From assembly GCA_036494465.1 (NCBI GenBank), contig DASXOJ010000147.1:22955-86954 (forward strand): DNA of 64,000 nucleotides, read 5' to 3'. Below the pieces are notes generated by a model, which was given only the letters and a program-made list of their open reading frames with translations, did not search any database and was not told where the DNA came from. The DNA is from Pseudonocardiaceae bacterium. Its GTDB lineage: Bacteria; Actinomycetota; Actinomycetes; Mycobacteriales; Pseudonocardiaceae. Position 1 is the first letter of the stretch. Every line of letters starts with the position of its first letter. This document shows positions 7,106-51,592 of the stretch, piece by piece. The translations under genes and the position numbers were made by a program.

Positions 7106-7115
7106 GGGAAGCGCG

Positions 7116-32152: not shown

Positions 32153-32710
32153 TCATGCCACCGGTGCGATGGGCAGGCCGAGTCCGGTGAGCATGATGTC
32201 GAGCATCTTGCCCGCGCGCGCCACGCCGTCCTCCTCGGTGGCGATGGAGACCGCGTGCGCCATCCGCAGCAGTTCGACCACCTCGATGTCGCTACGCACC
32301 ACGCCGGATTCCTGCAAGGGCGTGAGCAGTTCGCCCGCGGTCGCGCGCATGGCTTTGCGGCAGTAGTCGAAGTTCTCGCCGTTGTGGTCCATCGCGGTCT
32401 TGAGCGAACGGGCCAGGCCCTTGTTGGCGAAGATGAACTCGAGCTGGGCGTGCATCCAGGCACAGAGCGCCTGCTCGGGTGGCAGTTCCTCGCGCAGCCG
32501 CTTGCCAAGGTCGGCCAGCGCGATGATCTCCTCCCGGTAGATGGCTTCGATCAGCGCGTCCCTGGTGGGGAAGTGGCGGTAGAGGGTGCCTGCGCCGACG
32601 CCCGCCTTCTTCACGATCTCGTCGAGCGGCGCGTCGATGCCGTGTTCGGCGAAGACCTGCTTGGCCACGGCGACGATCCGCGCGGCATTGCGCTGGGCGT
32701 CGGCACGCAT
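32153..32710 (-). CDS. TetR family regulator
   Basis: RADAQRNAARIV...GVGAGTLYRHFPTR; GAGGAGG RBS. Confidence 0.9.
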   Translation of the reverse strand: MRADAQRNAARIVAVAKQVFAEHGIDAPLDEIVKKAGVGAGTLYRHFPTRDALIEAIYREEIIALADLGKRLREELPPEQALCAWMHAQLEFIFANKGLARSLKTAMDHNGENFDYCRKAMRATAGELLTPLQESGVVRSDIEVVELLRMAHAVSIATEEDGVARAGKMLDIMLTGLGLPIAPVA

Positions 32711-32745
32711 GGGTTCGATCCCTCCTCGAGTCCACATCGAGTATC

Positions 32746-32826
32746 CGGAGAGATTCTCCGAATAGACTTGCGCAATCGGAGAGTCTCTCCATATCGTAGG
32801 GCACGTTCAAGCGGAGAATGTCTCCG
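32746..32826. promoter_or_regulatory. Three CGGAGA-N3-TCTCC(G/A) operators; the middle one lies between TTGCGC (-35, 32768) and TATCGT (-10, 32792) of the MFS promoter
   Basis: Copies at 32746-32760, 32777-32791 and 32812-32826 in the divergent TetR/MFS intergenic region. Confidence 0.8.
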
Positions 32827-32852
32827 GTTGCTGTTCCGTAGGGGGAATATCC

Positions 32853-34295
32853 GTGACCGAGCGGACCCTGACCGCGCCCGTCAGCCAGGCGGCGCCGCGG
32901 TCAGCACGAGCCGGGCTCGTGCTGATCACCATCCTGACCTGCCAACTCATGCTCGTGCTCGACATCACCGTGATGAACGTGGCGCTGCCGCACATCCAGG
33001 TCGACCTGCACTTCACGCCGACCGGCCTGTCCTGGGTGATGAGCTCCTACACGCTGATCTTCGGCTGTCTGCTACTGCTCGGCGGCCGCGCGGGAGACCT
33101 GTTCGGCAGGCGCCGGATGTTCGTCGTCGGCGTCGCCGTGTTCACCATCGCCTCGCTGTTCGCCGGACTCGCCCAGACCGCGTCCTGGCTGATCATCGCC
33201 CGGATCGCGCAGGGCCTCGGCGCCGCTGCCGCGGGCCCGAACACGTTGGCGCTGATCACCAGCACCATCTCCGACGCCAAGGCCCGAGTGCGCGCGTTCG
33301 CGCTGTTCTCCGCCATGTCCAGCGGCGGTTTCGCGGTCGGCCTTATCGTCGGCGGGCTGCTTACCGAAATCGGCAGCTGGCGCCTTGGCATGTTCATCAA
33401 CGTGCCGTTCGGCATCGCCGTCACCGTGCTCGCGCGGCGCTTCATCGCCGAACCGGAGCGCAACGCCGCCCGGCTCGACCTGCCCGGCGCGATCACCTCG
33501 ACCCTGGGCGTCGCCGGGCTGGTCTACGGCTTCGTGCGCGCGGCGTCCGCAGGCTGGGGCGACCCGGTCGTGTTGACCACCCTGATCGGCGGCGCGCTGC
33601 TGGTCGGACTGTTCCTGCTGGTCGAACGCCGTGCCACCGAACCGCTGCTGCGGCTGAGCCTGCTCGCCGACGGCAACCGGGCCCGCGCCTACGCCAACAT
33701 GTTCCTCGGCCCGATGGCGATGACCTCGATGTTCTTCTTCCTCACCCAGTTCATCCAGGACGTGCTTGGCCTCAAACCGCTGGTCACCGGGTTCGCGTTC
33801 CTGCCAATGGCCGCGTCGATCTTCGCGGTCAGCCGGGTCATGCCGCGCCTGCTGCCGCGCTTCGGGCCCAAGGTGCTGGTCACCGCGGGCACTGGGCTGA
33901 TGGTGATCGGCCTGGTCTGGCTCACCCAGCTGGGCGTCACCAGCGGCTACTTCCCGACGCTGTTCGGCCCGTTGCTGCTGATGGGTATCGGCGGTGGCCT
34001 CGGCTTCTCACCGTTGAACGTGATCATCATGTCCACGGTGCCGGTCCGCGACGCGGGCGCGGCAGGCGGTGCGTTGCAGACCATGCAGCAGATCGGCAGT
34101 TCGCTCGGGCTTGCGGTGCTGGTCACAGTGTTCGGCCGGGTGTCGGCGACGGCCATCGCGCACCACGAGTCCGCCGGGCAGGTGCTGGTGTCCGGCATGA
34201 CCAGCGCATATGTCGTCGCGGCCGGTTGCGCGGTCGCCTCGTTCATCGTCGCGCTGACGTTCCGGCGCCAGGGAAACAGCGAGCGAACCGCGTGA
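32853..34295 (+). CDS. DHA2 (EmrB/QacA) MFS efflux transporter
   Basis: LDITVMNVALP, GGRAGDLFGRR, about 14 TM helices. Confidence 0.92.
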   Translation: MTERTLTAPVSQAAPRSARAGLVLITILTCQLMLVLDITVMNVALPHIQVDLHFTPTGLSWVMSSYTLIFGCLLLLGGRAGDLFGRRRMFVVGVAVFTIASLFAGLAQTASWLIIARIAQGLGAAAAGPNTLALITSTISDAKARVRAFALFSAMSSGGFAVGLIVGGLLTEIGSWRLGMFINVPFGIAVTVLARRFIAEPERNAARLDLPGAITSTLGVAGLVYGFVRAASAGWGDPVVLTTLIGGALLVGLFLLVERRATEPLLRLSLLADGNRARAYANMFLGPMAMTSMFFFLTQFIQDVLGLKPLVTGFAFLPMAASIFAVSRVMPRLLPRFGPKVLVTAGTGLMVIGLVWLTQLGVTSGYFPTLFGPLLLMGIGGGLGFSPLNVIIMSTVPVRDAGAAGGALQTMQQIGSSLGLAVLVTVFGRVSATAIAHHESAGQVLVSGMTSAYVVAAGCAVASFIVALTFRRQGNSERTA

Positions 34296-34365
34296 AGCGG
34301 GCATAAAGTCGATCGATACGGAGGTTGCTGGTAACGGATTGAGTCCGTTCAGGGGAGTGCGGTTG

Positions 34366-35982
34366 ATGCGTCGGGTGTGGGTGTGGCCGTTCGGCTTGGT
34401 CGCGATCGCGGTGGGGATCTTCGCCGGGATCGTCGCGGTGCGGGGTGCCGTGCCCGGTTGGGCCGCGCAACCCAGCCACGGCTTCACCCAGAACAGTCCC
34501 GCCCTGCACGGCCTGCTGGTCGCGTTGCTGCTGCTCGTGCTCGGCTGGGGCCTGCTGCGCGCCAAAGCGGTCGCGCTGGTCGCGAGCGTGCTGCTGATCG
34601 GCTGGGTCACCCTGGCCATGCGGCACACCAGCTGGAGCATCCTGCCGATCGGCTACGCGCTCGCGCTCGTCCTGTGCTATCACGGCTTTCCCGCCGTGCC
34701 GGACCGCGGCCAGGTGCGCGCCGCGGTGCGCAACGGACTGCTCGCCCTTGGCGTGACCCTGCTGATCGAATGGGCGGCCCGGCACGACTGGGCCGCCCAC
34801 CTCGGCCTCGCCGCGTCCACCCTGATCGTGATCGTGGTGGTGTTGATCACCACCCTGCGCGCGGCGCCCGCGCCCGCCCCGGCCACCGAGGCCGAGCGGG
34901 CCCGGATCGCCGCGCTGGTGCGCAGGCCCGGCGCGGACACGCTGGCGCCGTTCGCGTTGCGCTCGGACAAGTCCTACCTGTTCAGCGCGGACGGCACCGC
35001 CGCGATCGGCTACCGGGTGCTGCTCGGCGTCGCGGTCGTCGGCGGCGACCCGATCGGCGACCCGCGCGGCTACGACGACGTGATCGCCAGGTTCATGGCG
35101 TTGTGCCGCCGCAACGGCTGGCGGCCGGCGGTGCTCGGCGCCCGCGCCGAACTCGACCCGCTGTGGCGCGCCCAGCACCTCACCGGCCTCCAGGTCGGCG
35201 AGGAAGTCATGCTCGACGTGCCCGCGTTCGGCCTGGCCACGCGCAAGATGCGCAACGTGCGCCAGGCCGTCGGCCGCACGCACAACGCGGGCATCACCAC
35301 CCGGGTCGTGCGCGCGGGCGAGCTCGAACCGGAGCTGTTCGCGGAGATGTCCGAGGTGTCCAACGCCTGGCTGGGCAAGGCGCGCGAGCGCGGGTTCTCC
35401 ATGGTCATGGACGGCCTGTTCGACGCCGGCAACCCGGACAGCGTCTTCGTGCTCGCCTTCGACGCGGACCGGCACGTGGTCGGCTTCCAGCGCTACCTGC
35501 CCGCCGGTTTCGGTTACGGCCCAACGCCCGCACCGGGCGCCGCGCTGTCGCTGGACGTGATGCGCCGCGAACGCGGCCGGTTCAACGGGCTCAACGAGCG
35601 CATGATCGTCGACCTTGTCGACTACGCGAAACAACACGGCATCGGCACCGTGTCGCTGAATTTCGCCGCGTTCCGCGCCCTGCTCGACCGGGGCGCGCAG
35701 CGCGGTCCTGTGCAGCAGCTCGGCTACCGCACCCTGCACCTGCTCGACCCGTTCATCCAGGTCGAGTCGCTGTACCTGTTCAACGCCAAGTTCCGCCCCG
35801 GGTACCTGGGCAGGCGGGTCGCGTTCGGCAGCTGGTTCGCGCTGCCGGTGGTGTTGCTCGCGCTGCTCGGCCTGGAGTTCGCGCTCCCGTACGACCTGCA
35901 CCGAGGCCAGCGCGCGCCCGAACCAGTCGAAGCGGACCGCTCGCGGCTGCTCGCGATCTGGCGCGTTCCGACCCGGCATTAG
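34366..35982 (+). CDS. Membrane protein with an MprF/LPG-synthase C-terminal (DUF2156) domain
   Basis: FALRSDKSYLF, GDPIG, RNVRQAVGR, ERGFSM, SLDVMRR, LNERMI, SLNFAAF, SLYLFNAKFRP; short N-terminal TM region. Confidence 0.88.
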   Translation: MRRVWVWPFGLVAIAVGIFAGIVAVRGAVPGWAAQPSHGFTQNSPALHGLLVALLLLVLGWGLLRAKAVALVASVLLIGWVTLAMRHTSWSILPIGYALALVLCYHGFPAVPDRGQVRAAVRNGLLALGVTLLIEWAARHDWAAHLGLAASTLIVIVVVLITTLRAAPAPAPATEAERARIAALVRRPGADTLAPFALRSDKSYLFSADGTAAIGYRVLLGVAVVGGDPIGDPRGYDDVIARFMALCRRNGWRPAVLGARAELDPLWRAQHLTGLQVGEEVMLDVPAFGLATRKMRNVRQAVGRTHNAGITTRVVRAGELEPELFAEMSEVSNAWLGKARERGFSMVMDGLFDAGNPDSVFVLAFDADRHVVGFQRYLPAGFGYGPTPAPGAALSLDVMRRERGRFNGLNERMIVDLVDYAKQHGIGTVSLNFAAFRALLDRGAQRGPVQQLGYRTLHLLDPFIQVESLYLFNAKFRPGYLGRRVAFGSWFALPVVLLALLGLEFALPYDLHRGQRAPEPVEADRSRLLAIWRVPTRH

Positions 35983-36151
35983 GGGACTGGTTAGGGGCCC
36001 CGGTTAGGGGCTGCCACCTCGGATTACCTCGGTCGGGGGACACCATCCGGGCACACCCGTGCCTGGCTTGCTTTCCGCTCACCAACAGGCGCATTGTTGC
36101 GGTTACCAAGTATTTGCGTAGCTCATGCAACGGCGTAAGGAGGTGGCGGTC

Positions 36152-36730
36152 GTGCTGTCTGACGTGCCCGCGATGCGGAGCTCTCATGTGGAGAACGCCG
36201 ACCACCAGGTCAACGACGACACCGACGCCTGCCAGCCCGACCGGCTCGCCGCAGCGGCCGATCTCGGCAGCCAGTGCACCCGTTTCATCCGGCTGGTCCG
36301 CAAGGTCGGCGCCAGTCTCACCTTCCAGCGCCACGACGGCATCGAGTCCGCCGCGTACGCGCTACTCGCCGTCGCGGTGGTGGCCGGACCGCAGCGGTTG
36401 ACCGCGCTCGCCGAAGCGGTGCACGCCGACCCGTCCACGGTCAGCAGGCAGACCGCCGCGCTCGTCCGGCACGGCCTGCTGGAACGGCGCGCCGATCCCG
36501 CCGACGGCCGGGCCACGCTGCTGGTCGCCACACCCGAGGGGGTTCGGGTGTTCGAGGACAACAAACGGCTGCGCAGCAGGATGTTGGCGACCGCGCTGGG
36601 GGACTGGTCCGTCACGGACCTTGCCGCGCTGACCGTCCTGCTGGAGCGGTTGAACACCGACCTGGAAGGCGGCATCGAGTCCTACTTCCGGGCCGCCGCC
36701 GAATCAAGGACACCGGGACAGCCGAGATGA
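36152..36730 (+). CDS. MarR family regulator
   Basis: LAEAVHADPSTVSRQ, RRADPADGRA; AAGGAGG RBS before GTG 36152. Confidence 0.88.
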   Translation: MLSDVPAMRSSHVENADHQVNDDTDACQPDRLAAAADLGSQCTRFIRLVRKVGASLTFQRHDGIESAAYALLAVAVVAGPQRLTALAEAVHADPSTVSRQTAALVRHGLLERRADPADGRATLLVATPEGVRVFEDNKRLRSRMLATALGDWSVTDLAALTVLLERLNTDLEGGIESYFRAAAESRTPGQPR

Positions 36731-39360
36731 CCGCGACCAGACCGCGCCCCGGCGCTGCGACCGACCACATCGGACTGGCCCCGGTCGAACCGCCGCGCGC
36801 GGTGCTGACCCACCGCCAGGTCGTCCTGGTTTTCATCGGGTTGATGCTCGGCCTGTTCCTCGCCGCGCTGGACCAGATGATCGTCTCGGTGGCGATCCGC
36901 ACCATCGCCGACGACCTGCACGGCCTGGACATCCAGGCGTGGGTGACCACCGCCTACCTGATCACCTCGACGATCAGCACGCCGCTCTACGGCAAGCTCT
37001 CCGACATCTACGGTCGCAAGCCGTTCTTCATCACCGCGATCGTGATCTTCATCGTCGGCTCGGTCGCGTGCACCTTCGCCAACTCGATGTACATGCTCGC
37101 CGGCTTCCGCGCCTTCCAGGGACTTGGCGCTGGCGGGCTGATGTCGCTGGCGCTGGCCATCATCGGTGACGTGGTGCCACCGCGTGAACGCGCCAAGTAC
37201 CAGGGCTACTTCCTCGCCGTGTTCGGTTCGGCCAGCGTGCTCGGGCCGGTCGTCGGCGGGTTCCTCGCCGGACAGTCGCAGATCCTGCACATCGCAGGCT
37301 GGCGCTGGGTGTTCCTGGTGAACGTGCCGATCGCGGCGATCGCGCTGATCGTGGTCGGCAGGGTGCTCAACCTGCCGCACATCCGGCGCAGGCACCGCAT
37401 CGACTACTGGGGCGCGCTGACCATCACCATCTGCCTGGTCCCGCTGCTGATCATCGCCGAGCAGGGCCAGCAGTGGGGCTGGACCTCGCCCCGAGCGTGG
37501 CTGTGTTACGGCGTCGGCGCTGGCGGCCTGGTGCTGTTCATCGTGGCCGAGCTGCTGATGCGCGACGACGCGCTGATCCCGATGCGACTGTTCCGCTCCG
37601 GTGTGTTCAGTGTCACCTCAACCGCCAATTTCATTGTCGGTATGGGCATGTTCGGCGGCATGGCGGTTATTCCGCTCTATTTGCAGATTGTCAAGGGAGC
37701 GTCGCCGACAAAGGCCGGCCTGCTCATTCTGCCACTCGTTCTCGGTATCGCTTTGGCGTCAGTTTTTTCCGGACAGTTGACGGCCCGAACTGGTCGATAC
37801 AAGATTTTCCCACTGCTCGGGACGGCGCTGATGGTCGCCGGTCTGCTGTTGTTGAACACCATCAACGCGGACACCCAACTGTGGCGTACCGACATCTGGA
37901 TGTTCATTTTCGGTTTCGGTCTCGGCAACTGTATGCAGACGCTGATCATCGCGGTGCAGAACGCCGTACCCGCCAGGGATATGGGCGTCGCGTCGTCCTC
38001 GGCCACGTTCTTCCGCCAGATGGGCGCCACCCTGGGTACCGCGGTTTTTCTGTCCATTTTGTTCAGCGTGCTCGGCGGCAAGATCGGCAGTGCCTTCGCG
38101 ACCGAAGCGCGCTCCGCCCCGTTCCAGGCCGCGCTGCACGATCCGGCGGTGATCGCCAATCCCGCCAACGGGCCGGTATTCGCCATACTGCATAATGGTG
38201 GAGTCGGTGCCGCTGCCGGCGGATTGGCCCAGGATTCATCGTTTGTGCAGCGGCTCGATCCGCGATTGGCGCGACCGTTCTTGGACGGTTTCGCCGACTC
38301 GCTGCATCCGGTTTTGCTGACCGCCGCCATAGTGGTCGCGGTCGGTTTCGGTGTATTGCTGTTCTTGAAAGAGGTCCCGCTGCGGATGCAGTCGGGCCTC
38401 GAAGCGAGGATGGCCGAGGACGGCGCCGGGGGCGGTGCCGATCCCGGCGATCAGCTCGGTGGTGAAGGAGGAGGCGTGAGCGCTGGCGAGTATGGCTCCG
38501 TCGAGTTCGACTCAGCGGATCTCAACGGCCGGACGGGTTTGGGCGAGCTTGCGGGAGCGATGCCGATGAGCGGCAGGGACGGGTTTGACGCCCCGGGTGG
38601 CGCGTCGATCAGCGGGCACGTGCGCAGATCGGACGGTCACCCCATCGCGGATTCCGCGCTCACCCTGATCGACATGTCGGGCAGACAGGTCGGCCGCAAC
38701 GCGTCGGGCGTGGACGGCGGGTTCCACATCGTGGTGCCGGGTTCCGGTGCGTACGTGCTGATCGCGTCCGCGGGCGCGCACCAGCCGCAGGCGTCCACGG
38801 TGACCGTCGGAAACGGTCCGGTGACCGTCGACGTGGTGCTGACCGGCACGAGCAGCCTCGCGGGCACGGTCTCCATCGCGGGCCGGGGCACGCCGGTCAT
38901 CGGCGCGGCCGCGACCCTGGCCGATGGCCACGGCGAGGTGGTCAGCTCGCAGCTGACCGACGCGACAGGCAGGTACCTGTTCGGTGAACTGGTCGGCGGC
39001 GTCTACACGCTGGTGATCAGCGCCGAGGGCTACCAGCCGATCGCGACGACGGTCACCGTCGAGTCGACCGGGACGACCACTCAGGACGTGCAGCTCGCCG
39101 GTGGTTCGCACCTGCGCGGCGTCGCGCGGATCGCGGACGGCCGGGTCGTGCCGGACGCGCGGGTCACCCTGCTCGACGGGGCAGGCAACGTGATCGGCAT
39201 GACGACCACCGGTGACGACGGTGAGTACAGCTTCGACGACCTGCCCGAAGGTGACTACACGGTCATCGCGAGCGGCTACCCGCCGGTGGCCAGCACGCTG
39301 CGGGTCGTCGGCGGCGAATTCGGTCAACACGACGTGCGATTGGGACACCCGCAGTCATGA
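36727..39360 (+). CDS. DHA2 MFS transporter fused to three C-terminal carboxypeptidase-regulatory-like beta-sandwich repeats
   Basis: ATGA overlap with MarR; LSDIYGRK, about 14 TM helices; three ~85-aa repeats with G.V...G..V..A..TL.D..G...T...G.Y...G.Y.L pattern. Confidence 0.88.
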   Translation: MTATRPRPGAATDHIGLAPVEPPRAVLTHRQVVLVFIGLMLGLFLAALDQMIVSVAIRTIADDLHGLDIQAWVTTAYLITSTISTPLYGKLSDIYGRKPFFITAIVIFIVGSVACTFANSMYMLAGFRAFQGLGAGGLMSLALAIIGDVVPPRERAKYQGYFLAVFGSASVLGPVVGGFLAGQSQILHIAGWRWVFLVNVPIAAIALIVVGRVLNLPHIRRRHRIDYWGALTITICLVPLLIIAEQGQQWGWTSPRAWLCYGVGAGGLVLFIVAELLMRDDALIPMRLFRSGVFSVTSTANFIVGMGMFGGMAVIPLYLQIVKGASPTKAGLLILPLVLGIALASVFSGQLTARTGRYKIFPLLGTALMVAGLLLLNTINADTQLWRTDIWMFIFGFGLGNCMQTLIIAVQNAVPARDMGVASSSATFFRQMGATLGTAVFLSILFSVLGGKIGSAFATEARSAPFQAALHDPAVIANPANGPVFAILHNGGVGAAAGGLAQDSSFVQRLDPRLARPFLDGFADSLHPVLLTAAIVVAVGFGVLLFLKEVPLRMQSGLEARMAEDGAGGGADPGDQLGGEGGGVSAGEYGSVEFDSADLNGRTGLGELAGAMPMSGRDGFDAPGGASISGHVRRSDGHPIADSALTLIDMSGRQVGRNASGVDGGFHIVVPGSGAYVLIASAGAHQPQASTVTVGNGPVTVDVVLTGTSSLAGTVSIAGRGTPVIGAAATLADGHGEVVSSQLTDATGRYLFGELVGGVYTLVISAEGYQPIATTVTVESTGTTTQDVQLAGGSHLRGVARIADGRVVPDARVTLLDGAGNVIGMTTTGDDGEYSFDDLPEGDYTVIASGYPPVASTLRVVGGEFGQHDVRLGHPQS

Positions 39361-40295
39361 GCACACAACCAGAGTCGACCGACTGGTTCGGCCAGCCCGC
39401 GTCGGCGGAAACGACCTCGCAGGAACCGCCCGCCGCACCGCTGATCCCGCCCGCACCGGCTTCGGTGCCCGCGGGTGAGCCGATCGGCGTCAGCGCGACC
39501 GTGCACACCTCGGACGGCTGGCCGGTGCCCGCCGCCGTGTTGACGGTGACCGACGCGACCGGCCAGCAGGTGGCCAGGGTCGGCGCGGACGCCGATGGGC
39601 GGCTGGCGACCAAGCCGCTGCCGGTCGGCACCTACACCGCGATCGTCACCGCGCCGGGCTTCGATCCGACCGCGCGTGCCGCGCTGGTCACCAGCAGCGG
39701 CGCCGAACTCGGCACCGTCGAACTGGCCAGGGTCGCGGACGCGGAGCTGCCCGCGCCGGGCATCTACACCATCGATCCGGTGCACTCGGCGATCAACGTG
39801 ACCGCGCGGCACCTCGGCTTCGCCACGGTGCGCGGCCGGTTCACCGAGTTCAGCGGCAAGATCGAGATCGGCACGCCGGTCGAGCAGTCGCGGGTGACCG
39901 CGCTGATCGAGGCGGCGAGCATCGACACCGGCAACAAGATGCGCGATGACCACATGCGGTCGGCGGATTTCATGGGCGTCGACGTGCATCCGGTGATCCA
40001 GTACGTGGGCACCTCGATCACGCCGCTGGGCGGGGAGAAGTGGCGGGTGGACGGCAAGCTCACCCTCAACGGCACGACCCGCCCGATCGCGCTGGACCTG
40101 ACCTACCTGGGTGTCGGCCCGGACTCGTGGGGCGGCACGCGTGCCGCGTTCCGCGCGGTCACCGATCTGAAGCGCGAGGACTTCGCGATGAACTTCAACC
40201 AGATGGTCCGCGCCGGGGTCGCCGCAGTGGGCACCACGCTGCGGGTGGAACTGGACATCGAGGCGCTTCAGGGCGATGGTCTGCCGTCGTTCTGA
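39357..40295 (+). CDS. YceI (lipocalin-like) protein with an N-terminal carboxypeptidase-regulatory-like domain
   Basis: IDPVHSAI.V..RHLG..TVRGRF, RDDHMRSADF; N-terminal repeat of the same type as the MFS tails; no signal peptide. Confidence 0.9.
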   Translation: MSTQPESTDWFGQPASAETTSQEPPAAPLIPPAPASVPAGEPIGVSATVHTSDGWPVPAAVLTVTDATGQQVARVGADADGRLATKPLPVGTYTAIVTAPGFDPTARAALVTSSGAELGTVELARVADAELPAPGIYTIDPVHSAINVTARHLGFATVRGRFTEFSGKIEIGTPVEQSRVTALIEAASIDTGNKMRDDHMRSADFMGVDVHPVIQYVGTSITPLGGEKWRVDGKLTLNGTTRPIALDLTYLGVGPDSWGGTRAAFRAVTDLKREDFAMNFNQMVRAGVAAVGTTLRVELDIEALQGDGLPSF

Positions 40296-40311
40296 CCGAG
40301 TATTCCCAGCT

Positions 40312-40345
40312 CAGGCCCTGTCACGTCGTCTCGTGACAGGGCCTG
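40312..40345 (+). terminator. 14-bp stem-loop after yceI
   Basis: caggccctgtcacg-tcgtct-cgtgacagggcctg. Confidence 0.65.
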
Positions 40346-40480
40346 CGTGCGCGGTGCACGTGATCGGATTCACTGTTCGTCCCAACTTTGATAGTTGTGC
40401 ACAGCAAACAAAATTAGTTAGCATAGTTAAAGTAATTGGCGGGACGTAGACGAGTCATGAGCTCGTCCAGGGGAGTGGCC

Positions 40481-43105
40481 GTGGCCATCGCAGCACAGGA
40501 AGCAGCAGCCGGAGTACCGGGCGGTCGAGCACCGGACCGGCGCACTCGATCCCTCGCTGACCTCGGGCCGAACTACAAGTGGATCGCGCTGTCCAACACC
40601 ACGCTGGGCATGCTCATCGCCACCATCAACTCGTCGATCGTGCTGATCGCCCTGCCCGACATCTTCAAGGGCATCAACATCAACCCGCTCGACCCGAGCA
40701 ACACCAGCTACCTGCTCTGGATGATGATGGGCTTCCTCGTCGTCACCGCGGTGCTGGTGGTCAGCTTCGGGCGGATGGGCGACATGTTCGGCCGCGCCAA
40801 GATGTACAACCTCGGCTTCGCGGTCTTCACCATCTCCTCGATCTTCCTCGCGGTCACCTGGATGGACGGCAGCGCGGCAGCCTTGTGGCTGATCGGCTGG
40901 CGCATCATCCAGGGCATCGGCGGCGCGTTCCTGATGGCCAACTCCAGCGCCATCCTCACCGACGCGTTCCCGGCCAACCAGCGCGGTCTTGCCATGGGCT
41001 TCAACGGTGTCGCCGCGATCGCCGGTTCGTTCCTCGGCCTGATCATCGGCGGCCTGCTCTCGCCGGTCAACTGGCACCTGATCTTCCTGGTGTCCGTGCC
41101 CATCGGCGTGATCGGCACCATCTGGGCCTACATCAAGCTGCACGACACCGGCGAGCGCCAGCACTCCAAAATGGACTGGTGGGGCAACATCACCTTCGCG
41201 GTCGGCCTGATCGCGGTACTGGTCGCCATCACCTACGGCATCCAGCCCTACGGCGGCAAGTCCATGGGCTGGACCAACCCGTGGGTGCTCGGCGCCATCA
41301 TCGGCGGCGTGATCATCCTGGTGATCTTCGGCATCATCGAGACCAAGGTGCCCAACCCGCTGTTCAACCTCTCGCTGTTCAAGATCCGCTCGTTCGCCTT
41401 CGGCAACCTGGCCAACCTGACCGCGTCGCTTGGCCGAGGCGGTCTGCAGTTCATCCTGATCATCTGGCTGCAGGGCATCTGGTTGCCGCAGCACGGTTAC
41501 AGCTTCGCGTCGACTCCGCTGTGGGCGGGCATCTACATGCTGCCGATGACCGTCGGGTTCCTGCTCTCCGCGCCGCTGTCCGGAGTTCTCTCCGACCGGC
41601 TCGGCACCAGGGTGTTCGCCGCGGTCGGCATGTTCATCACCGCGCTGACCTTCGTCGGGCTGATCATCGTCCCGGTCAACTTCAACTACATCGCGTTCGC
41701 CGGCATCCTGCTGCTCAACGGTCTCGGCATGGGCATGTTCGCAGCGCCGAACCGGGCCGAGATCATGAACAGCCTGCCCGGCAACGCCCGTGGCGCCGGC
41801 GCGGGCATGACCGCGACCTTCCAGAACGCGGCCATGGTGCTGTCCATCGGCGTGTTCTTCAGCCTGATCATCGCCGGTCTGTCCGCGCACCTCCCGTCGG
41901 CGTTGACCACCGGTCTCACCGCACACGGCGTGTCGGCCAGTTCAGCGGCACAGATCGCCTCGCTGCCCGCGGTGGGCGTGCTGTTCGCGGCGTTCCTCGG
42001 CTACAACCCGATCCAGCAACTGCTCGGGTCGAGCATCCACACGCTGCCCGCCGCGCAGGCCAACTTCCTGACCGGCCGCAGCTTCTTCCCGAGCCTGATC
42101 TCCGGTCCGTTCGCGGACGGCCTGACCATCGCGTTCGTCTTTGCCATCGTGGCCTGCGTGATCGGTGCGATCGCCTCGCTGGCCTGCAAGCCGGCGAAGC
42201 TCTTTGCCCCCGTTGAGGACATCGGCACCGAACTCGCGGGCATCGCGGGTGAACTCGTCGACGAGGACCCGTTCGAGGTCCCCGCCGCGACGCTCACCAT
42301 GACGAATGGCAACAGTCACAACGGTCATGGCGTGCACGAACTCGGCACCATGCTCGGCGGCACCGTGCTCGGTCGTGGCGGCGTGGCCGCCGCAGGCGCG
42401 GTCATCACGCTGACCAGCCCGACCGGCCAGCAGATCGAACGCGCCACCGTCGCCCAGGACGGCACCTATCGTCTCACCGGACTGCGGCCCGGCGGCTACA
42501 CGGTCATCGCCAGCGCGCGCGGTTTCGCCCCGCAGGCGCTGTCCGCGCAGGTCACCGAGACCGAGTCGGCGCGCCGCGACTTCGTGCTGGAAGGCGCCGG
42601 CGCGGTCGGCGGCACCATCCGCGCCGCCCAGCAGGGACCGGGCGTGCCGGACGCGACCGTGGTGGTCACCGACGCCACCGGCGCCGTGGTCGGCCAGTCC
42701 ACCAGCACCCCGCACGGCGACTACCGGATCTCCGGTGTCCCGGACGGCACCCTGACCGTCACCGCGGACGCCAGGGGACACCAGCCCGCCGCCGCGCAGG
42801 TCACCGTGCAGGGCGGTCCGGTCACCATCGACCTGGTGCTGTCCGCGGTCGGTGGCGTGCTCGGCGCGGTCCGCTCGATCAACGGCCGCCCGCTGGCCGG
42901 TGCCACGCTGACCGCGGTCGACGCGGACGGCCGGGTGGCCGCGACCGTCGTCGCCGACGACTCCGGCCAGTACCGCCTCGACGGCCTGCCGGACGGCCAG
43001 TACACCGTGGTCGCCAACCTCTACCAGCCGATGGCTCAGCCGATCCGGATCGGCCCCGGCCAGACCGTGCAGCAGGACGTCACTCTGCACCCGCACGGCG
43101 CGTAA
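40481..43105 (+). CDS. Second DHA2 MFS transporter with three C-terminal carboxypeptidase-regulatory-like repeats
   Basis: GRMGDMFGR, about 14 TM helices, then three repeats. Start uncertain (GTG 40481 has a GGGGAG RBS; 40436 and 40457 are alternatives). Confidence 0.87.
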   Translation: MAIAAQEAAAGVPGGRAPDRRTRSLADLGPNYKWIALSNTTLGMLIATINSSIVLIALPDIFKGININPLDPSNTSYLLWMMMGFLVVTAVLVVSFGRMGDMFGRAKMYNLGFAVFTISSIFLAVTWMDGSAAALWLIGWRIIQGIGGAFLMANSSAILTDAFPANQRGLAMGFNGVAAIAGSFLGLIIGGLLSPVNWHLIFLVSVPIGVIGTIWAYIKLHDTGERQHSKMDWWGNITFAVGLIAVLVAITYGIQPYGGKSMGWTNPWVLGAIIGGVIILVIFGIIETKVPNPLFNLSLFKIRSFAFGNLANLTASLGRGGLQFILIIWLQGIWLPQHGYSFASTPLWAGIYMLPMTVGFLLSAPLSGVLSDRLGTRVFAAVGMFITALTFVGLIIVPVNFNYIAFAGILLLNGLGMGMFAAPNRAEIMNSLPGNARGAGAGMTATFQNAAMVLSIGVFFSLIIAGLSAHLPSALTTGLTAHGVSASSAAQIASLPAVGVLFAAFLGYNPIQQLLGSSIHTLPAAQANFLTGRSFFPSLISGPFADGLTIAFVFAIVACVIGAIASLACKPAKLFAPVEDIGTELAGIAGELVDEDPFEVPAATLTMTNGNSHNGHGVHELGTMLGGTVLGRGGVAAAGAVITLTSPTGQQIERATVAQDGTYRLTGLRPGGYTVIASARGFAPQALSAQVTETESARRDFVLEGAGAVGGTIRAAQQGPGVPDATVVVTDATGAVVGQSTSTPHGDYRISGVPDGTLTVTADARGHQPAAAQVTVQGGPVTIDLVLSAVGGVLGAVRSINGRPLAGATLTAVDADGRVAATVVADDSGQYRLDGLPDGQYTVVANLYQPMAQPIRIGPGQTVQQDVTLHPHGA

Positions 43106-43124
43106 CCAACCCGATCAGCCCGGC

Positions 43125-43159
43125 GCCTGGCCGCACAATCCTTGTGTGGCCAGGCTTTT
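43125..43159 (+). terminator. Intrinsic terminator
   Basis: gcctggccgcacaa-tcc-ttgtgtggccaggc followed by TTTT. Confidence 0.75.
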
Positions 43160-43688: not shown

Positions 43689-44300
43689 GTGGGGCAGGCA
43701 GAAGACACGAAAACCGTCGCTGACCAGCGGTCCGAGGACCGCTGGTTGACCGTGCCGAACGCGCTGAGCGTGCTGCGGCTGCTGGGCGTCCCGGTGTTCC
43801 TGTGGCTGCTGCTCGGCCCGCACGACGACCTGATCGCGCTGGCCCTGCTGGTGTTCAGCGGCGTGACCGACTGGCTGGACGGCAAGCTGGCGCGCTGGCT
43901 CAACCAGATGAGCCGGCTCGGCGCACTGCTCGATCCGGCCGCGGACCGGCTCTACATCTTCGCCACCCTCGTCGCATTCGTGCTGCGCGGCATCGTGCCG
44001 TGGTGGCTCGCGGTCGTCCTGGTGGCCAAGGACGTGGCCGTCGGCCTGTGCCTGCCGGTGCTGCGCCGCGCCGGTTACCAGCCGCCCGAGGTGCACTACG
44101 TTGGCAAGGGCGCGACATTCGCGCTGCTCTACGCGTTTCCGCTGATGCTGCTCGCCCAGAGCGGCTCCATCGCGGCCACCATCGCGCGGCCGATCGGGTA
44201 CGCGTTCATCATCTGGGGATCGGCCTTGTACGTGTGGTCTGGTCTGCTGTACGTCGTCCAGGTGGTGATCGCTGTGCGGCGTCCCGACCGGATTGGCTAA
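43689..44300 (+). CDS. pgsA2: CDP-alcohol phosphatidyltransferase (PgsA2/Rv1822-like)
   Basis: TDWLDGKLAR...GALLDPAADR signature; synteny with gcvH-garA. Confidence 0.88.
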   Translation: MGQAEDTKTVADQRSEDRWLTVPNALSVLRLLGVPVFLWLLLGPHDDLIALALLVFSGVTDWLDGKLARWLNQMSRLGALLDPAADRLYIFATLVAFVLRGIVPWWLAVVLVAKDVAVGLCLPVLRRAGYQPPEVHYVGKGATFALLYAFPLMLLAQSGSIAATIARPIGYAFIIWGSALYVWSGLLYVVQVVIAVRRPDRIG

Positions 44301-44342
44301 ATTTGCGCACACAGCGAAACAGCAGCGTGAGGAGCGTTCGAC

Positions 44343-44726
44343 GTGGTACCCGAGGAGCTGAAGTACACCCAGGAACACGAGTGGGTGGCTCGAACCGGTG
44401 AGGACTCGGTGCGGATCGGCATCACCGACTTCGCCCAGACCCAGCTCGGTGACGTGGTGTTCGTGCAGCTTCCCGAGGTGGGGGAGCAGGTCACCGCTGG
44501 TCAGGCGGTCGGTGAGGTCGAGTCGACCAAGAGTGTCTCGGACATCAACGTGCCGGTCGCCGGTGAGGTCATCGGGCGCAACGACGCCCTGGACGCCAGC
44601 CCGGAACTGGTCAATTCGGACCCATACGGCGAAGGCTGGATGATCGAGATCAAGCTCGCCGACACTTCCGAGGTCGACGGTCTGCTCGATGCCGATGCGT
44701 ATCGGCAGCTGACGGAGCAGGCGTGA
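44343..44726 (+). CDS. gcvH: Glycine cleavage system H protein
   Basis: YTQEHEW, GITDFAQ, lipoyl-Lys motif VESTKSVSD, NSDPYGEGW. Confidence 0.96.
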   Translation: MVPEELKYTQEHEWVARTGEDSVRIGITDFAQTQLGDVVFVQLPEVGEQVTAGQAVGEVESTKSVSDINVPVAGEVIGRNDALDASPELVNSDPYGEGWMIEIKLADTSEVDGLLDADAYRQLTEQA

Positions 44727-44839
44727 TAACGATCTTTCGTCGACTCTTCGGCCGTAAGGGGAGTCAACGCCGGGCTGAGGCGCAGGGCACGGTACGTTGG
44801 GATGGTCACAACGAGTCCAGCAGCAGGAGGAGAGCCCAG

Positions 44840-45286
44840 GTGAGCACGAACGACGGGCCCGGGGTACCACCGGAGGGATTGCCGGAACGTACCTCGGTTT
44901 TCCGGGCCGACTTCCTTTCCGAGGGCGAGCCGGCTGAGACACCCGTCCCTGAACCCAGTGTCGCCGGTGTCGACGCGCTGCCGACTGGTTCTGCTCTGCT
45001 CGTGGTGAAGCGCGGCCCCAACGCGGGTTCGCGGTTCCTGCTGGACCGCGACACCACCAGTGCGGGCCGGCACCCCGACAGCGACATCTTCCTCGACGAC
45101 GTCACGGTTTCCCGTCGGCACGCCGAATTCCGCAGGGAAAGCGGCGAGTTCGTGGTCATCGACGTGGGCAGCCTGAACGGCACCTACGTCAACCGGGAGC
45201 CGGTCGACCAGGCCGTGCTCGCCAACGGTGACGAGGTGCAGATCGGCAAGTTCCGGCTGGTGTTCCTGACCGGATCGAACGCCTGA
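44840..45286 (+). CDS. garA: FHA-domain protein GarA/OdhI
   Basis: TSVFRADF; GRHPDSDIFLDDVTVSRRHA; DVGSLNGTYVN. Confidence 0.93.
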   Translation: MSTNDGPGVPPEGLPERTSVFRADFLSEGEPAETPVPEPSVAGVDALPTGSALLVVKRGPNAGSRFLLDRDTTSAGRHPDSDIFLDDVTVSRRHAEFRRESGEFVVIDVGSLNGTYVNREPVDQAVLANGDEVQIGKFRLVFLTGSNA

Positions 45287-45335
45287 TCCCATCTCTGTCC
45301 GGCTCCGGGGGCGGGGCCCGGTGAGGAGTTCTGCG

Positions 45336-46076
45336 GTGACTGCGGCGGGGCGGCCACAACGAGACGGGTTGAGCATCGGGGCGGTGTTGGCACAACTCCG
45401 CCCCGAGTTCCCGGACGTGACGATCTCGAAGATCCGTTTCCTGGAATCGGAGGGGCTGGTGTGCCCTGGCCGGACTCCGTCCGGCTATCGGCAGTTTGCC
45501 CCTGCCGACGTCGAGCGGCTGAAGTTCGTGCTGGCCGCGCAGCGCGACCACTACCTGCCGCTGAAGGTCATCAAGGAACAGCTCGACGCGGTCGACGATG
45601 GCCGCTGGCAGGGCGCGCCACTCGCGCCCCGGCTGGCCAAGAACCTCGCCGCGCTGGACGGCTCGGGGCACGCGCCGAAGGCAGCGGATTTCCAGGCGGG
45701 CCCGGAAATCCGGATGACCAAGGAGGAGTTCCTCCGCGAGGTCGGCATCGACAACGCGACCCTGGTGGAACTGGAACAGTACGGCCTGGTCAAGCCCGGT
45801 GCCGCCGGTTTCTACAACCCGGACGCGGTCGTCGTCGCGCGCACCGTGAAGACCATGACCGAGTTCGGCATCGAACCGCGCCACCTGCGCGCCTTCCGCG
45901 CCTCCGCCGATCGCGAGGTCGGTTTACTCGAACAGATCGTGACGCCCTTACAGCGGCAGCACGACCCGGACGCCCGGGCTCGCGCCGACGAGGTCGTCCG
46001 CGAACTCGCCGCCCTCTCCGTCACGCTGCACACCCTCTTGGTAAAGGCCGGTCTGCGCGCGGTAACTGGCGGTTGA
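45336..46076 (+). CDS. ftsR: MerR family regulator (FtsR/Rv1828-like)
   Basis: SIGAVL..L..EFPDVTISKIRFLE, RTPSGYR; directly after garA as in other actinobacteria. Confidence 0.85.
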   Translation: MTAAGRPQRDGLSIGAVLAQLRPEFPDVTISKIRFLESEGLVCPGRTPSGYRQFAPADVERLKFVLAAQRDHYLPLKVIKEQLDAVDDGRWQGAPLAPRLAKNLAALDGSGHAPKAADFQAGPEIRMTKEEFLREVGIDNATLVELEQYGLVKPGAAGFYNPDAVVVARTVKTMTEFGIEPRHLRAFRASADREVGLLEQIVTPLQRQHDPDARARADEVVRELAALSVTLHTLLVKAGLRAVTGG

Positions 46077-46272
46077 TTGGGCCGGATGCGGCGCAAGAGC
46101 GCCGGTTTCGTCGGCAAAATGTCGTATCGTAACCGCGAAGGTCCAAGTAGGGGTAAGCATCTGGCTCCGATGGCGGGTAGCGTCTGAGGTAGCTGCGAAA
46201 CTTGATGCGAGCAGAGCAGCACACGCTGTTGGTCCCGGTCTGGTCCTTGGTCGCTTGAGGAGGCGAAGCCCG

Positions 46273-46746
46273 ATGAGCGAGATGCGAGTCGTCGGTGTTC
46301 GAGTCGAGTTGCCCCAGAACCAGCCAATCTTGCTGTTGCGCGAGGCGTCTGGTGATCGCTACCTGCCGATCTGGATCGGCTCGGTCGAGGCCACCGCGAT
46401 CGCGCTGGAACAGCAGGGTGTCCGGCCGCCCCGCCCGCTGACCCACGACCTGCTCAAGGAGATCATCTCCGCGCTCGGTCGTGAGCTGGAACAGGTCCGG
46501 ATCACCGGCCTCCAGGAAGGCACGTTCTACGCGGAGCTCGTCTTCGACGGCGACGTACGCGTTTCCGCCCGCCCCAGCGACTCGGTAGCGCTGGCGCTGC
46601 GCGTCGGGGTGCCGATCCACGCGGAGGAGTCGGTGCTCGCCGAGGCCGGCCTGATCATCCCGGACGAGCAGGAGGACGAGGTCGAGAAGTTCCGCGAGTT
46701 CCTCGACTCGGTCTCGCCGGAGGACTTCCGCGGAGCGGACACATGA
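46273..46746 (+). CDS. Bifunctional nuclease family protein (DUF151, Rv1829-like)
   Basis: LPIWIG, RPLTHDL, ARPSDSVALA, EKFREFLDSVSPEDF. Confidence 0.9.
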   Translation: MSEMRVVGVRVELPQNQPILLLREASGDRYLPIWIGSVEATAIALEQQGVRPPRPLTHDLLKEIISALGRELEQVRITGLQEGTFYAELVFDGDVRVSARPSDSVALALRVGVPIHAEESVLAEAGLIIPDEQEDEVEKFREFLDSVSPEDFRGADT

Positions 46747-46796
46747 GCAGAGCCGCGGAGCGGACACCTGAGCAGAGCCGCGGAGCGGATACCTGA
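46728..46796 (+). repeat. Tandem 25-nt repeat (two full units plus partials) spanning the nuclease stop codon
   Basis: tgagcagagccgcggagcgga(c/t)acc at 46744-46768 and 46769-46793, preceded by ccgcggagcggacaca. Confidence 0.85.
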
Positions 46797-46820
46797 CGGA
46801 GCCACGCTCCCCAACTGACG

Positions 46821-46860
46821 AAGTCCGGCCGGCCCGTGCGAATACGGGCCGGCCGGACTT
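46821..46860. terminator. 17-bp perfect hairpin, probable bidirectional terminator
   Basis: aagtccggccggcccgt-gcgaat-acgggccggccggactt between convergent genes. Confidence 0.8.
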
Positions 46861-46873
46861 GTTCGGTGTGGGT

Positions 46874-48357: not shown

Positions 48358-48437
48358 CCAGCAATATCGGTCACTGTCGCGCGTGCCACTAGTGGGGATC
48401 GAGCGATCACCGGGTACGCTTTGCAGGTAGTCGTAGA

Positions 48438-48637: not shown

Positions 48638-48715
48638 GGAGGGCCGGTTCTGCGGGCGTGGTGCGCCAGCAGGACACCAGCCCAGCTTGCCCCCTGACCC
48701 GCTGGAGGCCCGCCC

Positions 48716-51592
<2,877 letters not shown>

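Follow-up and report, generated by a model that had tools for sequence, protein, structure and literature searches.

Why should an efflux pump and a lipocalin encoded beside it carry the same beta-sandwich domain? The question is raised by a locus in a 64,000-nucleotide stretch of DNA from a Pseudonocardiaceae bacterium (the window, to which all positions refer). There the initial annotation described two MFS pumps and a YceI lipocalin sharing seven such repeats, and proposed a new efflux architecture under MarR control with cytoplasmic tails on the pumps. The features of the locus are collected in Table 1. The marR, MFS-1 and yceI genes are co-directional and overlap in turn by the tetranucleotide ATGA, read directly at 36727-36730 (marR/MFS-1) and 39357-39360 (MFS-1/yceI); from this arrangement the YceI protein is judged to be translationally coupled to MFS-1. 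The regulator scored 43.3 bits against PF01047 (cut-off 24.6), which places it in the MarR family, and its coupling to the pump was borne out by this match together with the overlap. Between yceI and MFS-2 lie a perfect 14-bp hairpin and an AT-rich spacer. The hairpin is likely a terminator or attenuator between two units; a simple terminator scan did not list it because no T-run follows. By a simple promoter scan, neither marR nor MFS-2 has a sigma-70-like site ahead of it, and no palindrome common to these two upstream regions was found. The operon is situated in a housekeeping region, with a CDP-alcohol phosphatidyltransferase and a lysyl-PG-synthase-domain gene adjoining and no biosynthetic cluster.

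Table 1. Features of the marR-MFS-1-yceI-MFS-2 locus, in window coordinates.
Feature	Position	Strand	Basis or remark
marR-family regulator	36125-36730	+	Pfam MarR E 3.4e-11; stop overlaps MFS-1 start (ATGA)
MFS-1 gene, 877 aa	36727-39360	+	14-TM DHA2 core, disordered linker, three CarboxypepD_reg domains
MFS-1 transporter core, OtrB/Tcr3-like 14-TM DHA2 drug:H+ antiporter type	36727-38427	+	Pfam MFS_1 E 3e-53
MFS-1 disordered Gly/Asp/Glu-rich linker, TM14 to first beta-sandwich	38428-38595	+	pLDDT <50 for aa 568-623
MFS-1 repeat 1 (CarboxypepD_reg), with G-x-Q-x-x-R	38602-38847	+	aa 626-707; Pfam, repeat alignment, AlphaFold2 strands
MFS-1 repeat 2 (CarboxypepD_reg)	38851-39102	+	aa 709-792; Pfam, repeat alignment, AlphaFold2
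MFS-1 repeat 3 (CarboxypepD_reg)	39106-39348	+	aa 794-874; Pfam, repeat alignment, AlphaFold2
CPD-YceI protein, 312 aa	39357-40295	+	Coupled to MFS-1 via ATGA (predicted); AlphaFold2 mean pLDDT 86
YceI N-terminal beta-sandwich (CarboxypepD_reg), conserved DGW and G-x-Q-x-x-R	39483-39731	+	aa 43-125; PF13620 44.6 bits
YceI lipocalin-like eight-stranded barrel	39765-40265	+	PF04264 E 1.2e-40
Perfect 14-bp inverted repeat, 17 nt past yceI stop	40312-40345	+	Inverted-repeat search
MFS-2 gene, 882 aa	40457-43105	+	DHA2-like core and three CarboxypepD_reg repeats
MFS-2 transporter core and linker, QacA/EfpA-like DHA2	40457-42346	+	Pfam MFS_1 E 4.9e-36
MFS-2 repeat 1 (CarboxypepD_reg)	42347-42595	+	aa 631-713; Pfam, repeat alignment
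MFS-2 repeat 2 (CarboxypepD_reg)	42599-42847	+	aa 715-797; Pfam, repeat alignment
MFS-2 repeat 3 (CarboxypepD_reg)	42851-43093	+	aa 799-879; Pfam, repeat alignment
14-bp inverted repeat past MFS-2 stop	43125-43155	+	Inverted-repeat search

The seven repeats proved real, each border falling within 3 bases of that first proposed, and a Pfam check assigned all of them to CarboxypepD_reg (PF13620, here CPD), a transthyretin-like beta-sandwich; a tail with three of them is denoted CPDx3. Against a cut-off of 32.3 bits, the three PF13620 stretches of the MFS-1 tail scored 115.8 bits (E 1.1e-33), those of the MFS-2 tail 136.1 bits (E 5.2e-40), and the single stretch in the YceI protein (aa 45-115) gave E 1.8e-11. 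Pairwise identity among the seven is 27-40%. The proposed fold was likewise supported by structure: Foldseek matched the YceI N-terminal domain to domain II of carboxypeptidase D (1qmu, E 1.9e-4), and the AlphaFold2 models of MFS-1 and CPD-YceI both contain seven-to-eight-strand sandwiches. A likeness to the Cna-B/SpaA/SdrD-B domains of adhesins and pili is evident from overlapping Pfam matches (SdrD_B, SpaA) and from structural matches (SdrD, the TIE protein), with CarboxypepD_reg as the top-scoring model throughout. Unlike those surface domains, however, the repeats have no sortase signal and are predicted to be cytoplasmic. Lysine is absent from six of the seven, a single loop lysine (ATKPLP) occurs in the remaining one, and the mean per domain across orthologues is 0.09-0.69. 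The lysine-based cross-link typical of surface Cna-B domains is thus not possible in those six; we rejected Cna-B/SpaA isopeptide chemistry on this ground, and the repeats do not belong to that class.

Both pumps are, by family, predicted to be proton-coupled drug-type exporters. MFS-1 scored 241.8 bits on TIGR00711 (cut-off 230.2), as expected of a DHA2 (EmrB/QacA) transporter, and was aligned by Foldseek to EmrB, EfpA and QacA over approximately 530 columns with target-normalised TM scores of 0.81-0.85. For MFS-2, which matched QacA with an E of 4.3e-31, TIGR00711 was the best family at 170.2 bits, below the cut-off, and MFS-2 is therefore described as DHA2-like and not as a certified member. 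Motif A (G-x-x-x-D-x-x-G-R-K/R) is present in the TM2-TM3 loop of both, as GKLSDIYGRKP in MFS-1 and GRMGDMFGRAK in MFS-2. MFS-1 also scored 479 bits with the OtrB model (NF000095) and 438 bits with the Tcr3 model (NF000009); since the curated cut-offs are 999 and 1000 bits, it is not an orthologue of either. The spacer between the end of the core match and the first tail repeat (r1) is 56-188 aa across 74 orthologues, a measure differing from the pLDDT-based linker of Table 1.

The lipocalin barrel was identified by PF04264 at aa 137-303 (139.8 bits, cut-off 23.7). Foldseek aligned it to YceI-family relatives of 22-37% identity, namely PA0423 (7bwl) and E. coli YceI (1y0g), each with a target-normalised TM of 0.90, and TT1927b (1wub), with 0.85; the last, which is polyisoprenoid-binding, is also the closest solved relative by profile search against the PDB (E 1.4e-49). 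The barrel matches BcnA/BcnB as well, and the PA0423 entry is titled 'antibiotic sequester'. Other deposit titles among these relatives include 'putative periplasmic protein' and 'conserved hypothetical secreted protein', and three of the relatives, E. coli YceI, PA0423 and BcnA/BcnB, consist of one domain and reside in the periplasm or are secreted. The eight-stranded barrel of the CPD-YceI protein resembles those of TT1927b (T. thermophilus), E. coli YceI, PA0423 (P. aeruginosa) and BcnA/BcnB (B. cenocepacia). The protein also has an N-terminal beta-sandwich, is predicted to be coupled to an MFS pump bearing the same domain, and has no signal peptide. Its residues 1-40 are hydrophilic and were modelled at low confidence without regular structure. 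No export signal was found among 76 CPD-YceI orthologues either: in 46 of them fewer than 12 residues precede the domain, and in the remainder the stretch ahead of it lacks a hydrophobic core. The genome also encodes a plain YceI, accompanied by a MarR gene of its own and by no pump.

On which side of the membrane do the repeats lie? All the evidence places the CPD domains of pumps and carrier in the cytoplasm, an orientation that we infer rather than measured. It follows from the topology of 14-TM pumps, from a carrier without a signal peptide, and from a free tail in Kutzneria, a soluble 252-aa protein encoded beside the YceI gene with neither TM segment nor signal peptide. The 14 helices first proposed were supported for MFS-1 by hydropathy, the AlphaFold2 model and structural alignment; by hydropathy MFS-2 has 14 clear helices and one ambiguous hydrophobic segment (aa 497-515). 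The opposite arrangement, in which tails and lipocalin would be extracellular and form a surface-exposed capture device, is suggested by the surface proteins from which the fold is best known (the SdrD, SpaA and TIE protein matches above), and the extra segment of MFS-2 could in principle be a fifteenth helix. That segment, however, sits in the K/R-poor TM13-TM14 loop, where QacA presumably has an external hairpin, and MFS-1 has 14 helices. Neither the 76 lipocalin orthologues nor the free Kutzneria tail have a signal peptide, and six repeats could not form the surface-type cross-link. We regard an extracellular location as very improbable; the cytoplasmic tails and the lipocalin without a signal peptide, as originally described, are both supported.

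The gene pairing is not confined to this genome and recurs in hundreds of actinomycete species, Streptomyces among them. Over 2,900 protein clusters matched the pump fusion and over 1,000 the YceI fusion, and CPD-YceI is encoded in at least 515 species genomes. The architecture is therefore not new, as had been claimed; both fusions are already deposited publicly, in thousands of copies that bear generic names, and a literature search on the pump-tail and CPD-YceI fusions found no paper. A CPDx3-tailed pump lies directly upstream of CPD-YceI on the same strand at 74 of 81 loci, the seven exceptions being two contig edges, two split genes in Kutzneria, one fragmented gene and two rearrangements. 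In an even sample of 201 Actinomycetia genomes, 12 had CPD-YceI, and a CPDx3 tail coding region was directly upstream on the same strand in every one (12/12; two of the upstream open frames were short, one of them truncated where its contig stops). What seemed to be a stand-alone tail in another genome (G077) proved to be cut by a contig end and was not counted. At 47 of 74 related loci a MarR gene was detected immediately ahead of the pump. The module is near-universal in the Streptomyces-like genus sampled (7/8 genomes) and occurs also in Actinomadura, Kutzneria, Saccharopolyspora and Amycolatopsis. In Kutzneria the transporter part is gone, while the free tail is still directly beside the YceI gene. 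Judged by gene order, these data show that the linkage of carrier and tailed pump is tight and ancient, in agreement with the functional link first suggested. The conserved unit, on the same basis, is marR, one tailed pump and CPD-YceI; the initial view of two pumps sharing the module did not hold, MFS-2 being a lineage-specific addition.

The tail is also found apart from the lipocalin. CPDx3- or CPDx2-tailed DHA2 pumps occur in approximately 12 of the 201 sampled genomes without CPD-YceI, in several families, and MFS-2 orthologues in two close relatives lack the tail, ending approximately 45 aa past TM14; the tail thus serves some purpose where the lipocalin is absent, and evolution can dispense with it. 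Two further exporters with the domain are encoded in this genome, a third tailed pump (contig C187) and a FUSC-family exporter with one r1-type CPD (C93), and no YceI gene adjoins either of them; in all, the exporters of this genome with the domain are three MFS pumps of two subfamilies and the FUSC exporter. One Streptomyces-like genome has a second CPD-YceI with no pump adjoining, and a 2-TM-anchored CPDx3 protein without a transporter is encoded in a Streptomyces-like genome.

Across 74 orthologous loci the motif G-x-Q-x-x-R is present in 73 of the r1 domains and in all 74 YceI-CPD domains, and in none of the second (r2) or third (r3) repeats; DGW is conserved in 73 of the YceI-CPD domains. 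Mean pairwise identity is 62% for r1, 59% for r2, 67% for r3 and 66% for YceI-CPD, compared with 61% for the transporter core, showing at the level of sequence that the tails are under purifying selection equal to that on the core. Distances of YceI-CPD and the tail repeats correlate beyond those of core and barrel, which were regressed out (partial r 0.31-0.46); this co-variation is weak evidence for a link. When domain charges were compared, all four domain types were acidic or near neutral, and no charge complementarity between tail and YceI domain was obvious.

We tentatively favour, at a probability somewhat short of even, a conserved actinomycete export module in which the lipocalin docks on the pump. 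Its components are a regulator of the MarR family, a DHA2-type proton antiporter with 14 TM helices, akin to OtrB, Tcr3 and EmrB, whose long disordered tether ends in three cytoplasmic transthyretin-like domains, and a cytoplasmic YceI lipocalin with one domain of the same family. The ligand of the lipocalin would be hydrophobic, perhaps an isoprenoid lipid or else an antibiotic or metabolite of lipophilic character, and would be bound in the cytoplasm or at the membrane's inner leaflet. Contacts between beta-sandwiches would hold the lipocalin at the pump, where the cargo would be released at a cytoplasmic or lateral entry, and MarR would leave the promoter once the same class of compound accumulates. 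MFS-2, a second tailed pump from another DHA2 subfamily and probably transcribed separately, could use the same carrier. The very strong linkage, the signature common to r1 and YceI-CPD and the free Kutzneria tail are consistent with docking, which is only partly supported: tailed pumps without CPD-YceI and tail-less MFS-2 orthologues count against docking as the tail's only role. A broader and rather doubtful version would have CPD act, in actinomycetes that form mycelium, as a homotypic 'address tag' on the cytoplasmic side, with the r1-type G-x-Q-x-x-R surface as recognition code and the lipocalin plugging into any tagged exporter.

Several of these observations could be explained without docking. 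The tail might be intrinsic to the pump, helping it to oligomerise, fixing its position in the hypha or allowing a cytoplasmic factor to gate it, with the lipocalin domain binding the same third partner or membrane feature; pump and lipocalin would then be co-localised, not docked. Tailed pumps without CPD-YceI, the 2-TM-anchored CPDx3 protein and the FUSC-family exporter all fit such a role, and G-x-Q-x-x-R would suit a site for a shared ligand or partner no less than a mutual interface. The conserved unit, on the other hand, encodes no third partner, and the Kutzneria tail has stayed beside the YceI gene with no transporter part to serve; we consider this explanation unlikely, if not markedly so. 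An improbable one is that the lipocalin works without the pump, soaking up or buffering the inducing compound in the cytoplasm in the way that BcnA does extracellularly; the beta-sandwich would then only stabilise the lipocalin or make it oligomerise. The deposit titles of BcnA/BcnB and PA0423 describe antibiotic-capturing proteins, and both the plain YceI with its own MarR gene and the second CPD-YceI do without a pump, but buffering leaves unexplained the near-constant tight or translational coupling of the CPD form to a pump with the same domain, as well as the signature common to r1 and YceI-CPD.

A further rival concerns the cargo. The module could export or flip an endogenous isoprenoid-type lipid (a quinone, polyprenyl carrier, carotenoid or hopanoid-like molecule) rather than drugs, with YceI as a cytoplasmic lipid chaperone, as might be suspected from the polyisoprenoid-binding TT1927b. 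EfpA, solved with bound lipids, is among the solved structures nearest both pump cores, and those nearest MFS-1 also include an Rv1410 homologue deposited as a putative triacylglyceride transporter. The near-universal presence in the Streptomyces-like genus and, in this genome, the housekeeping neighbours of the operon point the same way. Nevertheless, the MFS-1 core scores far higher with OtrB and Tcr3 than with any lipid transporter, and MarR-type control is typical of inducible detoxification. Lipid export seems to us unlikely.

The closest characterised relatives of MFS-1, by profile score, are the MarR-regulated tetracycline exporters OtrB and Tcr3. These are 14-TM proton antiporters of the DHA2 family, as MFS-1 is predicted to be, and we know of no partner lipocalin for OtrB. 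The MFS-1 core aligns to the OtrB model end to end (aa 25-571 to profile 17-555 of 563), and the approximately 300-aa linker and tail lie beyond it. A MarR-family gene likewise adjoins OtrB (with OtrR, Streptomyces rimosus) and CtcR (Tcr3; with CtcS, S. aureofaciens). CtcS, a MarR protein, represses the Tcr3-type pump CtcR, tetracyclines relieve CtcS binding to the ctcR promoter, and OtrB pairs with the CtcS homologue OtrR (PMC6905112). Whereas ctcS and ctcR are divergent (PMC6905112), marR, pump and yceI here are co-directional with ATGA overlaps, and unlike those systems the locus lies outside any biosynthetic cluster. The characterised S. coelicolor pair SCO4121/SCO4122 was considered as the same system and dropped, the paper giving no sign of a tail or YceI gene and orthology not being established.

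Pairing of a small hydrophobic-ligand carrier with a 14-TM MFS pump in one operon recalls LprG-Rv1410 (P55) of Mycobacterium tuberculosis, which are co-transcribed and thought to act together. LprG, however, is a lipoprotein with a different fold that sits at the membrane's outer face, while the carrier here is predicted to be cytoplasmic, and the two partners here carry homologous domains for which there is no counterpart in LprG and Rv1410. Lipid export by the present module would be analogous to the mycobacterial pair, but on the inner side of the membrane. Cytoplasmic beta-sandwich tails on transporters also occur in the ABC transporter ATPases, in MalK and as the TOBE tails of ModC and MetN, where they are landing pads for soluble partners or effectors; this is analogy only, as fold family and transporter class differ and no homology of the CPD tails to these regulatory tails was detected. 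To our knowledge, no beta-sandwich tail has been described on MFS pumps.

We conclude that the locus represents a real, widespread and uncharacterised variant of MarR-controlled MFS efflux, in which the carrier paired with the pump may serve to pass hydrophobic cargo on to it. In the usual picture an MFS exporter takes its substrate unaided from the cytoplasm or inner leaflet, and a pump-tethered cytoplasmic carrier would add a step to that picture. If the address-tag reading were true, MFS exporters would have a cytoplasmic substrate-delivery partner, of which we know no example in the superfamily. With the predicted placement of the repeats, a fold regarded as a surface module has a large cytoplasmic radiation. 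A tethered carrier would provide a new means of influencing specificity and of engineering Streptomyces antibiotic producers for product export, and, since the module is widespread, one experiment in a model strain would annotate thousands of genes.

Four plus-strand genes lie at 36125-43155, all with the high third-position G+C that is usual for real genes of this genome, and encode a MarR-family regulator, two MFS pumps (MFS-1 and MFS-2) and a YceI lipocalin (CPD-YceI). In Pfam searches, each pump ended in three CarboxypepD_reg domains (CPD; PF13620), and the YceI protein began with one. All seven repeats scored far above the gathering threshold, with pairwise identities of 27-40%. The initial annotation, which had placed such repeats on these three proteins, is confirmed by Pfam, with every border within 3 bases of the one it had drawn. 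Six of the seven repeats lack lysine, which rules out a Cna-B-type isopeptide. The spacer 5' of MFS-2 is unusually AT-rich (aaaattagttagcatagttaaagtaatt) for a genome of 68-70% G+C and holds an 8-bp palindrome (TGTGCACA); it may be a promoter/operator region, and a simple scan of it gave no sigma-70 match.

Positions of the operon, its surroundings and related genes
Feature	Location	Position	Strand	Remarks
TetR gene	window	32153-32803	-	divergent
MFS transporter	window	32853-34292		480 aa
Synthase-domain protein	window	34339-35979		547 aa; C-terminal lysyl-phosphatidylglycerol synthase domain only
marR	window	36125-36730	+	MarR-family regulator, Pfam E 3.4e-11
MFS-1	window	36727-39360	+	877 aa; start overlaps marR stop as ATGA
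CPD-YceI	window	39357-40295	+	312 aa; start overlaps MFS-1 stop as ATGA
Inverted repeat	window	40312-40345		perfect, 14 bp; between CPD-YceI and MFS-2
Spacer	window	40346-40456		5' of MFS-2
MFS-2	window	40457-43105	+	882 aa; follows inverted repeat and AT-rich spacer
Second inverted repeat	window	43125-43155		3' of MFS-2
Downstream genes	window	43689-51589		pgsA-like, gcvH, FHA/GarA-like, MerR, MerR, gcvP
Plain YceI	contig C61	1179-2292		187-aa type, no CPD
FUSC/ArAE-type exporter	contig C93	7499-9937	-	PF13515, PF04632; one terminal CPD
Third DHA2 pump	contig C187	2833-5904	-	three CPD
MFS-2 orthologue	locus L001	11413-13281
MFS-2 orthologue	locus L003	5249-7135
Free tail	locus L005 (Kutzneria sp. 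CA-103260)	9737-10495		stand-alone soluble, three CPD; between marR and CPD-YceI; locus L004 alike
Two-helix protein	locus L094 (Streptomyces-like genome)	6526-7791	-	421 aa, three CPD

The core of MFS-1 exceeded the DHA2 subfamily cut-off and matched the NCBI models for OtrB (479 bits) and Tcr3 (438 bits), whereas MFS-2 fell under that cut-off and was closer to QacA and EfpA. CtcS, a MarR protein encoded next to the Tcr3-type pump CtcR, represses that pump, and tetracyclines weaken the binding of CtcS to DNA; the partner of OtrB, OtrR, is homologous to CtcS (PMC6905112). The YceI barrel resembled PA0423 (deposited as an antibiotic sequester), E. coli YceI, the polyisoprenoid-binding TT1927b and BcnA/BcnB, while the N-terminal domain resembled the transthyretin-like domain of carboxypeptidase D.

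A search with the MFS-1 tail returned 2,924 protein clusters at E <=1e-3 among the candidates scored; the best 120 of these were nearly all MFS fusions of 770-1,076 aa, from Pseudonocardiaceae, Kutzneria and Streptomyces. For the YceI fusion, the search returned 1,017 clusters; with each species represented by one genome, the fusion turned up in at least 515 species, including members of Streptomyces, Actinomadura, Spirillospora, Kutzneria, Saccharopolyspora, Amycolatopsis, Actinoallomurus, Streptacidiphilus and Fodinicola. We compared the best 80 loci together with the window (n = 81). In 74 of the 81, the gene directly upstream of CPD-YceI and co-directional with it encoded a pump with three CPD, and a MarR gene was detected before the tailed pump in 47 of these 74. 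The seven exceptions comprised two contig edges, two split genes in Kutzneria, one fragmented pump and two rearrangements, both with a tailed pump still within 6 kb. Among 201 evenly sampled Actinomycetia genomes, plain YceI was nearly universal (175/201); CPD-bearing YceI was present in 12, with the coding region of a three-CPD tail immediately upstream in all 12. These counts define marR, the tailed pump and CPD-YceI as the conserved unit. It is close to certain that marR, pump and lipocalin are functionally coupled in a conserved way. MFS-2 is an addition, whose occurrence beside the unit is limited to close relatives within Pseudonocardiaceae and, on the opposite side, to Kutzneria.

The placement of the tails and the YceI protein in the cytoplasm, also claimed at the outset, was supported by helix count, structure superposition, orthologue N-termini and a free tail in Kutzneria. 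Hydropathy analysis gave 14 hydrophobic helices for MFS-1. Its AlphaFold2 model (mean pLDDT 81.5) has 14 helices; the loop between TM13 and TM14 is helical, and TM14 is followed by a short helix, residues 568-623 at pLDDT <50 and three beta-sandwiches; the TM part superposed on EmrB, EfpA, QacA and an Rv1410 homologue over ~530 columns (target-normalised TM 0.78-0.85). Fourteen helices put both termini of MFS-1 on one side, which for DHA2-type pumps is taken as the cytoplasm. An additional hydrophobic stretch in MFS-2 (aa 497-515), within the K/R-poor TM13-TM14 loop, is read from its sequence as a putative part of that external loop. The window's CPD-YceI has no signal peptide; fewer than 12 residues precede the CPD in 46 of 76 orthologues, and no hydrophobic core precedes it in the remainder. 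Two Kutzneria genomes encode the MFS-1-type tail as a protein of its own, of 252 aa (start MDSSLIRGRV...) and with neither TM segment nor signal peptide; its gene is ATGA-coupled to marR and followed by CPD-YceI. This arrangement is a natural split of tail from transporter; at both loci an MFS-2-type tailed pump lies upstream of marR. Together, the 14-TM pumps, the signal-less YceI and the soluble Kutzneria tail place all of the domains in the cytoplasm.

Position-specific clades were resolved in a tree built from 65 repeats, taken from 13 loci and the window genome's other copies. All first repeats (r1) formed one group (support 0.80), to which MFS-2 r1 and the lone CPD of a FUSC exporter also belonged; MFS-1-type second and third repeats (r2, 0.92; r3, 0.99) each formed their own clade, and the YceI domains a separate one (0.99). 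The three repeats of a tail were therefore passed on together, and the YceI CPD is an old lineage whose divergence ran parallel to theirs. The free tail of Kutzneria falls within the MFS-1 tail clades and is thus a tail without its former transporter, kept beside the YceI gene. The lipocalin's CPD appears to have been recruited later, into a tail system already present. Compared over 74 operons, tail repeats and YceI CPD are conserved as much as the transporter core (mean pairwise identity 59-67% versus 61%), with 56-188 residues between the end of the core match and r1. The motif G-x-Q-x-x-R occurs in r1 (73/74) and the YceI CPD (74/74) and in no r2 or r3 of these operons; DGW is nearly invariant in the YceI CPD. 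YceI-CPD and tail-repeat distances stayed correlated with each other once core and barrel distances had been regressed out (partial r 0.31-0.46), which is weak evidence because lineage-specific rates could yield the correlation.

Tails and lipocalins also occur apart. The window genome's third DHA2 pump is an MFS-1 paralogue (tail 49% identical) downstream of a large SARP/AfsR-like regulator, with no YceI gene nearby. No YceI gene lies near the window genome's FUSC exporter either; the CPD of this exporter groups with pump r1, so the tag is not confined to MFS transporters. The two-helix protein has both TM helices at its N-terminus, then a Pro/Glu-rich linker and the CPD, without a transporter part; its gene adjoins an htpG-like gene. 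A second CPD-YceI without a pump occurs in another Streptomyces-like genome. The window genome's plain YceI gene, on contig C61, is divergent to its own MarR-like gene, and no MFS pump gene was called in the flanking ~9 kb; MarR-controlled YceI recurs independently of the CPD tag. MFS-2 orthologues from two MAGs of closely related Pseudonocardiaceae (L001 and L003) end ~45 aa past TM14, inside the acidic linker; the tail has been lost in both and is thus open to loss.

We propose an inducible export module, in which a hydrophobic compound would be captured by the cytoplasmic lipocalin, and contacts between beta-sandwiches, borne on a tether both long and flexible, would hold the lipocalin at the pump. 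Such docking is tentative, with a chance somewhat short of even. Tailed DHA2 pumps occur without CPD-YceI in the genome in ~12 of the 201 sampled Actinomycetia. From these and the other tails without a lipocalin described above, it follows that the tail has some role not needing the lipocalin. The lipocalin's CPD may bind either the tail or the tail's own partner. As to cargo, the OtrB/Tcr3 kinship and MarR control speak for a lipophilic antibiotic or metabolite, the TT1927b kinship for an isoprenoid lipid.

In the stretch directly upstream of marR (32153-35979), the flippase-less synthase-domain gene and the adjoining MFS gene could be a split MprF-like pair. The downstream gene order, which we take to be that known from mycobacteria, marks the surroundings of the operon as housekeeping DNA and not as a biosynthetic cluster. 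No paper was found in the literature for either an MFS-CPD or a CPD-YceI fusion, and the fusion proteins carry generic names only in public databases, except two mislabelled alpha-amylase. These two (P0091 and P0101, Streptomyces MFS proteins with three CPD) bear the UniRef name 'alpha-amylase', probably an automatic mis-annotation from the tail's carbohydrate-binding-like fold. The initial claim of a new architecture does not hold in the sense of a new kind of system or one special to the window, given the cluster counts of both searches; the module is a variant, new but widespread, of MFS efflux under MarR control.
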